A stretch of 64,000 bases of DNA from Octopus sinensis (taxonomy: Eukaryota). This document shows, in pieces, positions 2,833 through 56,600 of the stretch. The stretch's first letter is position 1. Each line of letters starts with the position of its first letter. Position numbers and translations under genes: made by a program. The stretch spans positions 49,910,001-49,974,000 of the forward strand of contig NC_043013.1 of NCBI RefSeq assembly GCF_006345805.1. Reading direction: 5' to 3'. The notes under the pieces were generated by a model, which searched no databases, had not been told where the DNA came from, and saw only the letters and a list, made by a program, of their open reading frames with translations.

Positions 2833-3140
2833 ATATTCTGTTGTGTCTGGGGAGAGTCATTCTCTTTTAGTGCCTTATTATTTAACACACTCACCGGTAA
2901 AATTTCCACTTATTTCTTATTTTTTATTTTCTAAAATTTTCGTTGCGTCTTATTGAAAAGGTTGCAAGACGCAACGAAAATTTTAGAAAATAAAAAATAA
3001 GAAATAAGTGGAAATTTTACCGGTGAGTGTGTTAAATAATAAGGTACTAAAAGAGAATGACTCTCCCCAGACGCAACAGAATATGCTTCAACACTCGAAC
3101 TCATATAAAGAATCTTGCAAACCAAATCTAAAAACGAATT
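2833..3140. repeat. Fold-back (about 118-bp arms), family also at 41355-41600
   Basis: 2833-2951 is the near-perfect reverse complement of 2966-3084. Confidence 0.9.
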
Positions 3141-3707
3141 ATTTCAATATCAGATTTCCATCTACATTGTTTTGGCCACATTACAGCATTGCCGCGATTC
3201 ATTTTTCTATTGATTTTGCAATCATTTTCCCCTATTTATATATTTTGGCTATTTTTGCAAATTCAAATATTTGCAAGACTTGTAAGATGGACTGGTACTT
3301 TTATCTGTGTTGACTGAAAGAAGCCAGACAGTAAATAGGTAAATCTTTGTTTATATTCTACCCACCCTCCAATCTTTTATCTCTTCAACAATTGTCTCTT
3401 CATTTAAGCCATTTAAATTCAATTGATGTAATTCCTTTTCCTCCGTTGTGTCTCACTGCTCTAGATCAGTTACTAAACATTTTGCTTTGAATTTTCTTTT
3501 GCCCAGTTTTCTTGTTACAATTAAAAAAGTAACTAAACAAATGGCATATGCTCTGATACTATTCAGTCATTCTTGTCTAACAAGACTCAGAAATGCTATG
3601 AATAAAAAAAATGTAAAATAAAGATTAATATCTGTAATAGTGTTTTAACTTATATAGAGAGTCAGAGCTCCTCCGTATTAATCATAGGATCCAAGTTTTA
3701 ATAATAA

Positions 3708-41066: not shown

Positions 41067-41354
41067 TATTGGATCCAATTTTGTATTAAATGTAATTTTG
41101 ATTCAACATCATTTTCTCCCATCGTTTAACGATGATGATGATGATGATATATATATATATATATGTAAAAGTAAAAAAATACAAACTGGGACAAGAACGT
41201 GAAACATTTAGAAGACGACACAAAAAACACGGACGGGACATTCAAAGCCTTCAATCTTCAGTCAAGAACCGGATCATCTTTGCAATTTCGGCTGATTAAT
41301 ATATATATATATATATATCCATATATATTTATCCATATATATATATATATATAT

Positions 41355-41600
41355 ATTTCGTTTTCGGATTTGGTTTACAAGATTTTTTATATGAGTTCAT
41401 GTGTTGAAGCATATTCTGTTGTGTCTTTTTGTGGCTTGTAATGTAACACACTCACTGGTAAAATTTCCACTTATTTCTTATTTTCCTAAAATTTTTGTTG
41501 CGTCTTGCAACCTTTTCAATAGTCATGACTCTGTTCGTTATTTACACTGCATTCCTATTACACTATTCAAGACTATTGAAAAGGTTGCAAGACGCAATGA
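41355..41600. repeat. Second copy of the 2833-3140 fold-back family
   Basis: Shares TAAAATTTCCACTTATTTCTTA and TTGAAAAGGTTGCAAGACGCAA. Confidence 0.85.
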
Positions 41601-50075: not shown

Positions 50076-50214
50076 TATATATTCCCGTAGAGGGAATCAC
50101 ACCACCGGTATTTAGCCCAAGGAAGCATCAACGCTTCCTGTCGGCCTTGACACATTTCCTGTGTCCTTATGTTTACATGGGGGAGACAAGCACCCCCATC
50201 CAGCTAAACCTGCA

Positions 50215-50256
50215 TCCAGAGACATGTTTCTGAGTTTTGCTCATCATCAGTCTGGA
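50215..50256 (-). ncRNA. Minimal type I hammerhead ribozyme motif
   Basis: TCCAGA-CTGATGA-TGAG-CAAAA-CTCA-GAAA-CATG-TC-TCTGGA; perfect 6-bp stem I, GUC site, palindromic stem III. Confidence 0.88.
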
Positions 50257-51626: not shown

Positions 51627-51649
51627 ACAGGTATTACAACCACTCATGG

Positions 51650-52070
51650 AAATATCCTTGGATATCTATGTGAGCACAGAAGACTTCTTTGGTAGTATCA
51701 GTTAATGTAACCGCTCCAATGATCTCACAGGTTGTGTAGTAGGTATTATGGATGTAATATCACTCTATCTGTCCATTGACAGAGACTTTGCTGTGGAGAA
51801 ATGCATTGAGATAATCTGTGAGTGCGAAGTAGAAATCTGTAAAGTTGACACGAGGGAACTGTGCCTCCTCCTAAGACTAACCCACAATCATGATTACCTA
51901 AACTATGACCCAAGTAGATTCTGCCCCACCATGTCTGAACAGAGAAGACCAGCTACCATCAGAGAAGAAGAGCACCACAGAATTCTGGAGCAGTTGAACC
52001 ATATCCACCCAGGACCCAGAGAACAGCAATCAGGTGAAAAGGATGATTGCGCATGTAATAGGTGCTAGTG
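51650..52070 (+). mobile_element. PLE-type RT relic
   Basis: VVGIMDVISLYLSID resembles the PLE RT motif S(M/F)DVxxLYxxI. Confidence 0.55.
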
Positions 52071-52139
52071 TGAAAAGTTTATCCCTATGGTGACAACTGG
52101 AGATGTCATCGCGGAGTTGGTTGTAAAATTCCTTTTCCT

Positions 52140-53530: not shown

Positions 53531-53659
53531 GTGTCATAATGCGATCAGAAATACCTTTGGGTAGAGAAAGAAAGGATCTGACTATTTCTGTTTTGATGGC
53601 AAAACCAACACCAGAGTAGCATGGCTTGTCTTCATTTCTTCTACACCAGAAAAATATAC

Positions 53660-56600
53660 ACTGAAAGGTATGTCTGGCGAGATAGTCGAGATGCTTGAAT
53701 GGAGATGTGTTGATGTATGTTGCATGCAAGAAATAAGGTGGAGAGGAGGATCTGCTAGGTTCCTCACAGGCAAGGAACACAGGTACAAGATTTTCTGGGC
53801 AGGGAACACTGACAGGGTTGGTGGCGTGGGTATACTTATCGCTGAGAAATGGGTAGATAAAGTAATTGAGGTAATCAGAGTAAGTGACAGAATACTTAAG
53901 ATTAGAATAGTGCTTCATCATAGATTAGCAACCATTATATCGGCCTATGCCCCTCAGCCAGGGCTACCCGATGGACAGAAAGACAGTTTCTATGACACCC
54001 TACTGCTGACCACCTCATTGACGAACGACAGGGACCTTCTCTTTGTGGCTGGTGACTTCAATGGGCATGTTGGACGACATGCTGGGGGCTTCCATGGCAT
54101 ACATGGAGGCTACAGTTATGGTTCCCGCAACGAGGAGGGAACCAGGCTGCTGGAGTTCTGTGATGCGAATAGTCTTATGGTTTGCAACACTAACTTCAGG
54201 AAACCGACAAGCCACCTGGTCACCTACCGATCGGGCTGGCATACTAGCCAAATCGACTACATCGTTGCCAGAAAAAGGGAAAGATGGCTGCTTATAAATG
54301 CCAAAACCTTCCCAGATGAAGAATGCACCCCACAACATAGACTGGTAGTTAGTGACTTTAGGATCAGGACTAAGAGGGCGACTAGAAGACGACCAACATG
54401 GAGAAGAAGGGTCTGGAAGCTTAAAGACCCTGCGAATGGACAGAGATTTAGAGACATGTTACTTGAAGCCTTTGACGAAATGGAAGGGGGTATAGCTACA
54501 CATGGGGTAGAAGACAACTGGACGCTTCTGAGGGACAACCTGCTGAAAGCCACTGACCAGATCTGTGGCTGGTGCAAAGTCCCCTTAAGACCCAAAATAA
54601 CGTGTGGTGGAACAATATTGTTGACAGGGCTATTAGACAAAAGAAACAGGCTTGGAAGGACTGGAAGAACGGTGGTAGCAGGGAAGTGTATCAGACTGCC
54701 AGAAGGGAAGCTAGGAGACGGGTCTATCTAGCCAGAGGCGAAGCAGATAAGAAAAAATTTGCCAATGTTTTGCGCCATGAGGATGAAAGACTTGAGGTAT
54801 TTCGTGTTGCAAGACAGTGTGTGAGAGAGAATCGTGACGTGGTAGGAAAGAAATGTGTTCGCAAGGATGATGGTTCACTTGCGCTAAATGAGGATGCAAA
54901 GAGAGAGGCTTGGAGACGCCACTATGAAAGGTTGCTGAATGAGGAAAATGAATGGGATAAAGAGAGTCTGCCAAATGTCGACCCAACAGAGAGACCAGCA
55001 ATCTGAGTTAACAGTTCCACGGATTTTTGTCAGTGAACAGGTCGCGGATTTTAGCGCCGAAAAATATTTTGACAAATTAAACTTAAATGTTGAAGTGAAT
55101 CGAACGGCTTTTGTGTGTTTATTAAATGGCTTATAAACACCTTCCACGCTACAATTGTTTTCGTTTCAGCACACGATCTCAGATCAAATTACTTGCTATG
55201 CGAGTACATTTCCGTAGTTCCTTAGTAGTTAAGGCAATTAAAAGCATGAAAACAGGCAAAGCCCCAGGCCCATCAGGAATTACTGCAGAGATGCTCAAAA
55301 TATCTGGTAGTGTCGGCTATAGCCTAGTCACCCGTATAGTTAACCAGGTGATACACGAAGGAGTCATACCCAATGACTGGTGTAGCAGCATACTAGTCAA
55401 CTGCTACAAAGGTAAAGGAGACACCCTAGATACAAATAATTACAGAGGTATCAAGCTGTTGGATCAGGTAATGAAGGTTACAGAGAGGGTCATAGCCCAA
55501 CTGATTAGGGAGAGAGTCAACTTGGACGAGATGCAGTTTGGTTTCATGCCAGGGAAAAGCACCACTGATGCCATATTTCTGGTGAGACAGCTGCAGGAGA
55601 AATACCTAGCCAAAGATAAGCCCCTGTACCTGGCTTTCGTTGACATGGAGAAAGCCTTTGACAGGGTCCCTAGATCCCTTATCTGGTGGTCAATGAGAAA
55701 ACTAGGGATAGATGAATGGCTGGTGAGGGCTGTGCAAGCCATGTACAGAGATGCTGTAAGTAAGGTTAGGGTTGGCAACATGTACACAGAAGAATTCAAA
55801 GTAGAGGTTGGGGTCCACCAGGGTTCAGTACTCAGCCCCCTCCTATTTATCATAGTCCTCCTGGCAATTACGGAGGAATTCAAGACAGGTTGCCCCTGGG
55901 AGCTCCTATATGCTGACGACCTTGCTCTAATTGCTGAGTCACTATCAGAACTGGAGGAGAAGTTCCAGGTGTGGAAGGAGGGTCTAGAATCGAGGGGCCT
56001 TAGAGTCAGCCTAGCAAAAACCAAAGTAGTAATAAGTAGGAAGGTAGACAATCCACAAATGTCTTCAGGAAGATGGCCCTGCTCGATCTGTAGAAAAGGT
56101 GTAGGTAGAAACTCTATAAGATGTACCCAGTGTAAGCTATGGACACATAAGAGGTGTAGCAATGTCAAAGGAAGGCTAACTGGGAAGATAGATTTTGTAT
56201 GTGGCAGATGCTCGGGAGCATTAACCTCTGAAAATCTGCAGAAAACAACTTCCGTCACTTTCCAGGGGGAAAAACTAGAAGTAGTTGATAGCTTCCGCTA
56301 TCTTGGTGACCAAGTCAGTAGTGGGGGTGGGTGTGCTGAAAGTGTAACGGCTAGAGTAAGAATAGCCTGGGCAAAGTTTAGGGAGCTCTTACCTCTGCTG
56401 GTGACTAAAGGCCTCTCGCTCAGAGTAAAAGGCAGACTGTATGATGCATGTGTACGAACAGCCATGCTACATGGCAGTGAAACATGGGCTGTGACTGCTG
56501 AGGACATGCATAAGCTCGCGAGAAATGAAGCCAGTATGCTCCGATGGATGTGTAATGTCAGTGTGCATGCTTGACAGAGCGTTAGTACCCTGAGAGAAAT

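Follow-up and report, generated by a model that had tools for sequence, protein, structure and literature searches.

Background

The pseudo-LTRs (pLTRs) of Penelope-like elements (PLEs) carry minimal type I hammerhead ribozymes, found mostly as solo copies from truncated PLEs, which cut poorly in vitro and for which the sections available describe U3-A8 as the natural covariation (Cervera and de la Pena 2014, PMC4209133). Natural U3-A8 core variants also figure in the available text of Perreault et al. (2011, PMC3088659). In PAc, the Poseidon element of Anolis, the accessible parts of one report have a hammerhead that needs protein for cutting and is dispensable for insertion in vitro, an engineered C3G/G8C mutant of it that partly regains cleavage, and a tail that equals the interval between two internal reverse transcriptase (RT) start sites (Frangieh et al. 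2024, PMC11167929). The G3:C8 combination appears in the portions consulted of PMC11167929 and PMC3884650 as an engineered variant.

Here we report on a 64,000-nucleotide stretch of the Octopus sinensis genome (contig NC_043013.1, positions 49,910,001 to 49,974,000; hereafter the window), in which a short insert carries a hammerhead motif with G at position 3 and C at position 8. To our knowledge, G8 is usually treated as invariant, or as exchangeable with A8 only. We propose, at a probability of roughly 0.7, that the insert is the pLTR and tail of a PLE, likely copied from 5' leader RNA, and that it carries a type I hammerhead whose G3:C8 core is family-wide and whose cutting is predicted to be weak, dimeric or aided by protein.

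Results

The insert and its host LINE

A first-pass annotation had described a 197-bp insert with a 6-bp target-site duplication (TSD), AGTTCC, inside a LINE that it postdates, and the letters of the window bear this out (Table 1). Three other copies of the host LINE hold a single AGTTCC or AGTACC with contiguous flanks, that is, an empty site, and the 203 bases 55013-55215 are absent from contigs of two of the four sequencing runs, with six ambiguous letters at the joint. Because of these empty sites and skipping contigs, we regard the TSD as genuine and the insert as younger than the LINE. The family was rightly called young as well, the insert being 97.5% identical to the natural copies L034 and L038; it is 95.4% identical to the pLTR-ORF junction of L088. 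The LINE, which we take to be RTE-like, is broken by the insert and additionally by a frameshift of its own and a stop at 55004.

Table 1. Features of the insert and its surroundings, in window positions
Feature	Position	Strand	Remark
Host LINE, APE-type endonuclease and RT	53565..56574	+	PF03372 and PF00078 matches
Left TSD copy, AGTTCC	55013..55018	+	6 bp
Insert (5'-truncated end of a family A PLE: pLTR end and tail)	55019..55215	+	197 bp
Minimal type I hammerhead motif	55026..55076	+
Stem I	55026-32/55070-76	+
Core G3-U-G-A-A-C8-A9	55033-39	+	G3 55033, C8 55038
Unpaired G after A9	55040	+
Stem II	55041-45/55054-58	+	mismatch at 55057 in the window copy
G12-A13-A14	55059-61	+	G12 55059
Stem III	55062-68	+	near-palindromic
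Predicted cut after U17 (N17)	55069	+
First 30 codons of the PLE ORF (MAYKHLPR...)	55126..55215	+	same peptide at the start of the long ORF in L088 and L094
Tail between the preferred 3' ends at element positions ~141 and ~197	55160..55215	+	~55 nt
Right TSD copy	55216..55221	+

Several further features were seen in the window. From the PLE start codon, a 482-codon chimeric ORF (55126-56574, +) continues without a change of frame into the RT half of the LINE; it is probably due to chance, but the pLTR end may bring promoter elements. A second hammerhead, of another family and of the canonical C3:G8 type I, lies at about 50210-50256 (-), with a 6-bp stem I, a 4-bp stem II and a palindromic ACATGT stem III. 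A related PLE RT fragment at 51628-52075 (+) is 48-56% identical to the proteins P0003/P0005, and BLAST matches to sister-family loci fall at 3074-3142 and at 41300-41422, the latter an AT-rich repeat.

An end fragment of an autonomous Penelope-like element

The insert, which had been set apart as a mini-element outside known classes, is the terminal pLTR plus ~55-nt tail of an autonomous PLE in the same genome, where many copies at 92-100% identity occur (40 scored of 569 candidates in 2.72 Gb). A search for an autonomous partner recovered this RT/GIY-YIG element, and the link to PLE machinery that the first-pass annotation had suspected is thereby confirmed. In L088 the layout is pLTR with hammerhead, ATG, RT, endonuclease (EN), a 3' UTR of ~1 kb and a second hammerhead, the last lying about 1 kb past the stop of the long ORF. 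Because an ATG with the long ORF follows the hammerhead region of L088, the final 90 bases of the insert make up that ORF's opening 30 codons, and the label "non-coding" does not apply.

The proteins P0003/P0004 contain the motifs DKSG, YPSID, YVDD, CQSNCAVC, VYQIKC..YIGETSR and YQHAVDCH, together with a C-terminal GIY-YIG domain (PF01541, E 3e-5); the Pfam RVT_1 profile gave no match to P0003. A single ORF thus joins a PLE-type RT to a C-terminal GIY-YIG, as in EN+ PLEs, and long open frames are also present in L085, L086 and L087. The CX3CxxC linker (CQSNCAVC, at residue 593) and a C..C..H..H (CCHH) pattern across EN agree with the CX2-5CxxC linker and CCHH of the Neptune/Nematis clade, a name that would be provisional here, being taken from protein motifs. 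Also PLE-like are the partial-tandem pLTR layout of L088 and L094 and the target-primed insertion at AT-rich sites with variable TSDs; TSD candidates outside microsatellites measure ~6-13 bp, and many targets are (TA)n. In L094, the family A copy stands directly behind a different, Penelope-type RT ORF (reverse strand, 520-1728).

The 5-bp inverted match between the ends ACGGA and TCCGT and the 6-bp TSD of the window copy had suggested a DNA-transposon route, on which the insert would be a MITE resembling a hammerhead by chance. We give this reading almost no credence and reject it: the family runs on 5' of ACGGA for more than 1.5 kb and reaches into the RT/GIY-YIG ORF of an autonomous partner, neither fixed terminal repeats at each end nor a TSD of fixed length was found, and homologous canonical hammerheads occupy the same place in sister families. 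Variable 5' ends (from -524 to +118 relative to 55019), two fixed 3' ends, varying TSD lengths and common inverted 5' pieces are typical of PLEs, and the terminal repeat is an accident of the truncation point in the window copy.

Anatomy of the hammerhead in family A

The motif has the parts of a minimal type I hammerhead, namely the three-way junction, stems I and II, U4 G5 A6, A9, G12 A13 A14, A15.1-U16.1 and H17, and G3, C8, G12 and N17 had been placed correctly from the start (Table 1). The 3:8 tertiary pair is Watson-Crick, and in place of the consensus letters C3:G8 it reads G3:C8 throughout family A. Stem II is present as first described, its pairing being better taken as GTCGC/GCGAC with the G that follows A9 left unpaired; this stem is perfect in 48 of 63 tallied copies, and the GCGCC of the window occurs in 13. 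Because the window copy combines a stem II mismatch with an extra A in stem III, found in none of the 63 tallied copies, it is not the best choice for assay. The palindrome of stem III (AATATT in family A, AATT in the older family E described below) would permit dimers, with a weak self-duplex of -2.6 kcal/mol.

No motif of this type arose in 5,000 dinucleotide shuffles of 55013-55221 under a descriptor that admitted any Watson-Crick 3:8 pair. The minimum free energy fold yields stems I and II at an unexceptional energy (z -1.21 for the motif, -0.98 for the insert), and an Rfam search gave no hammerhead match, even at E 10. We consider active but weak cleavage by this hammerhead probable.

G3:C8 is the family-wide state of family A. 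The 17-mer with this core has 5,629 exact matches in the genome, in accord with the core first read from the insert, and the pair is present in 29 of 30 copies picked by an upstream anchor and in 14 of 18 picked by a downstream anchor. When positions 3 and 8 were left free, an older subfamily gave 2,578 matches, with G3:C8 in 91 of the 100 matches listed. G8 occurs in 241 copies (about 91 of the 100 matches listed are G3:G8), and the G3:G8 copies spread over several loop backgrounds; an ancestral C3:G8 or G3:G8 subfamily was sought among the copies of family A and not found. Six of 25 G3:G8-type loci, four of them independent, share a stem II change that is absent from 27 C8 loci, and a probably dead ribozyme lineage has therefore spread, modestly.

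Copy ends and the ~200-bp copies

The 3' ends of copies form two peaks, with 56 of 159 pieces ending at element positions 135-143 and 84 at 190-197, and we infer that these two preferred ends are RT start sites. At the other end the precision seen in the window copy is lost: its 6-bp TSD stands, TSD lengths differ between copies, and 5' ends vary from copy to copy. Among 30 loci picked by the tail motif alone, 15 (two of which are one duplicated locus) begin at -9 to -1 relative to 55019, six begin further upstream and nine further in. Inverted 5' pieces ending near element position 140 are common, a script having flagged 17 of these 30 loci as inverted, four of them through low-complexity upstream matches.

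Of 30 copies starting exactly at AGATG (-8), a set that includes some pairs from single insertions, 23 are preceded by a G where the element has C; the flanks of such copies are 17% G. The window copy ends 8 nt short of the A of AGATG, its first base (55019) lying 8 nt downstream of this inferred transcription start, and the TC-A-GA context of the A is presumably initiator-like. Starts with an extra G just upstream of the ribozyme are what one would expect if cDNA synthesis began at an internal RT start and ran to the cap. Upstream of the motif, CTAAC..TTTCTCAG could be taken for a splice acceptor; this seems less likely, as the copies end at AGATG with a single G before it and share no upstream exon. 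Only one of 30 tail-anchored copies starts at the predicted cut, at a junction explained by microhomology, and we therefore regard the templates as mostly uncut.

The short copies vastly outnumber the long ones (444 matches to the upstream anchor against the 5,629 to the core) and contain, besides the hammerhead, the inferred transcription start and both sites of RT initiation; one identical inversion junction is common to five loci. All of this would suit a self-propagating non-autonomous subfamily, SINE- or retrozyme-like, with its own pLTR promoter and the PLE protein supplied in trans. We nevertheless hold such a subfamily to be improbable, as the short copies are colinear with the end of the autonomous element at 95-97.5% identity, their 5' ends and inversions vary between copies, and head-to-tail arrays of a fixed unit were not seen among family A loci. 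A non-LTR retrozyme was rejected likewise: such elements form head-to-tail arrays, whereas the window holds a single copy, and copies elsewhere are dispersed or inverted.

Two further arrangements were observed. L155, L158, L160, L180 and L183, all on C1, have the same inversion junction and the same 3' flank, so that a short inverted copy has multiplied there as a unit, perhaps inside a larger repeat. At L333:1470-1700 there is a short tandem array with a ~32-nt unit made of the 5' half of the hammerhead.

Sister families and the 3:8 pair

Family B is young, with 56% protein identity, long open frames and a median divergence of 1.4%; at the homologous place it combines C3:G8 with C9, the C3:G8 pair being present in 30 of 31 motifs. 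A strict descriptor missed this family because of the change from A9 to C, and the motif was spotted by eye. In family C the motif reads TGTCA-CTGAAGA-GGTCACAG, against TGTCA-GTGAACA-GGTCGCGG in family A, within a common TGTCA..GGTC frame; its pattern has 372 matches (C3:G8 in about 81 of the 100 listed), and in L340 and L356 the motif comes after related RT/EN sequence. Family E is older (24% median divergence), 78% identical to A and also G3:C8, having been retrieved by a pattern containing G3 and C8. It differs from A in C7 (N7), in loop II, in stem I pair 6 (G-C vs U-A, the G-C being a majority of 12 of 22) and in its shorter palindrome, with the fold kept: UGA, GAAA, G10.1-C11.1 and a palindrome are common to both families while loops and N7 differ.

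A9 is normally invariant in hammerheads. C occupies this position in 30 of the 31 motifs of family B (L130-L154, e.g. L130:4637-4697), and the metagenome locus L186 combines C9 with U3:A8.

Marine-metagenome relatives at 33-50% protein identity carry a motif shortly after the ORF. Nineteen such loci were read downstream of the ORF with no filter on 3:8, a fairer sample than a listing of matches with a Watson-Crick 3:8 pair or long stems, and they gave 11 readable cores, one decayed core (L221) and seven loci with no motif. The pair is C3:G8 in L185, L187, L188, L191, L204 and L208 and U3:A8 in L186, L189, L190 and L212; the cores of L185, L189 and L204/L206 were picked by eye, and L204 was excluded from alignment A3. 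Behind a related PLE ORF, L185:4964-5024 holds a hammerhead with U15.1-A16.1 (GAAU...A).

In each of 20 aligned rows, positions 3 and 8 form a Watson-Crick pair (CG 9, GC 7, UA 4), and we therefore read the swap as a compensatory, lineage-fixed change. Pairing holds in 98.3% of cells, against 67.7% in shuffles and 10-56% in slid controls, figures that are not a probability because the rows are related. Stem II is 97.9% paired across families, with changes on both sides, and the covariation at 3:8 and in the stems that a genuine ribozyme fold called for is thus present. The 3:8 pair has changed identity repeatedly in this PLE clade yet stayed paired. A protein tree of 15 rows, midpoint-rooted, built without family E or a named reference and with family C 40% filled, places A as sister to B+C (each 100/99-100), with outgroups that are C:G or U:A. 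From this placement of A beside C3:G8 families we conclude that G3:C8 was derived once; the swap is a single evolutionary event, which limits the weight of the covariation.

The same PLE fragment could instead carry a catalytically dead or negligible relic, G3:C8 having become fixed in a master lineage that could do without cleavage, and the stems being retained for folding or protein binding. Two observations count against a needed ribozyme, namely that copies derive from uncut RNA and that a sub-lineage combining G3:G8 and a broken stem II has spread; family B, moreover, tolerates the change of A9 to C, a two-step swap would go through an inactive single mutant, and in the accessible account of PAc insertion in vitro is unaffected by hammerhead mutants (PMC11167929). 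A relic is hard to square with a 3:8 pair that is Watson-Crick in every family with a readable core, and with UGA, GAAA, G10.1-C11.1 and the palindrome persisting from A to E while loops and N7 change. On balance we consider it unlikely and favour a weakly active ribozyme.

Discussion

Our observations are consistent with the following course of events. RNA polymerase II would begin transcription 8 nt upstream of 55019, at the A in TC-A-GAT. The RT would nick AT-rich DNA and then start internally, at ORF nt ~34 or ~90; runs to the cap would yield the thousands of ~200-bp copies, and runs to a 5' break the long copies. Cleavage after the predicted site would trim tandem read-through transcripts and be unnecessary for each insertion. 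The swap would be a single event that followed the divergence from sister families B and C, and it would have been kept because an active fold needs the 3:8 pair. The fuller picture, of a long-lived, amplifying PLE lineage with an active natural G3:C8 hammerhead, in which ~200-bp copies are cap-to-tail cDNAs recording internal RT initiation in vivo, we hold at even odds.

Should this reading be right, a cytidine sits at position 8, that of the general acid, and ribozymes of this type escape both Rfam and the CUGAnGA and UUGAnAA descriptors. Standard descriptors would then overlook whole ribozyme families, and some PLEs reported to lack hammerheads may be explained in this way. A lineage-fixed G3:C8 beside C3:G8 sisters in one genome offers a comparative test of whether pairing or base identity is under selection, and the same comparison bears on whether PLE hammerheads must cut at all. 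From the genomic side, the extra-G 5' ends would support the view that the many solo pLTR copies stem from internal RT initiation.

The 2017 survey by Lünse and colleagues is said to cover PLE hammerhead variants and may already list G3:C8. No natural G3:C8 was found in the literature searched, some of it in part and with Lünse et al. 2017, Martick and Scott 2006 and Przybilski and Hammann 2007 outside it, nor is the pair among the rows of Fig. S3 in PMC4209133, which have C3 or U3 only. PLE hammerheads and natural U3:A8 are already known from the available sections of PMC4209133 and PMC3088659, and natural G3:C8 would, as far as the literature searched extends, be new as a core variant, the ribozyme and its element class both being known.

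In pLTR position, in an unpaired nucleotide between 9 and 10.1, in G10.1-C11.1 and in a small palindromic helix III, the present hammerheads resemble those described in the same sections of PMC4209133; they differ in their G3:C8 core and in the extra nucleotide, which is G here and H in the published consensus. Like the U3-A8 variants they show a compensatory change at the 3:8 tertiary pair, in this case a double transversion to G3:C8 that the available text of PMC3088659 does not mention. As in the accessible account of PAc (PMC11167929), the hammerhead lies near the ORF start, the tail runs from one end point to another inside the opening codons of the ORF, and targets are AT-rich. Unlike in PAc, G3:C8 is natural and not engineered, the tail measures ~55 nt rather than 30-40, the entire hammerhead lies upstream of the ATG, and a CX3CxxC linker is present in the protein. 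Non-LTR retrozymes are, in the portion of their description available, likewise pLTR-derived, short and hammerhead-bearing, but they form tandem arrays with a hammerhead per unit, whereas the present copies are end fragments of an autonomous element, single or inverted and dispersed (bioRxiv 10.64898/2026.07.22.740005). In protein and copy structure there is a likeness to the Neptune/Nematis-type EN+ PLEs, as set out in the sections consulted of Craig et al. (2021, PMC8557442), which combine RT, a CX2-5CxxC linker and, at the C-terminus, GIY-YIG with CCHH, and which also show tandem and inverted pLTRs and a (TA)n bias; the pLTR, tail and inversion anatomy found here matches that description and so supports the PLE reading.
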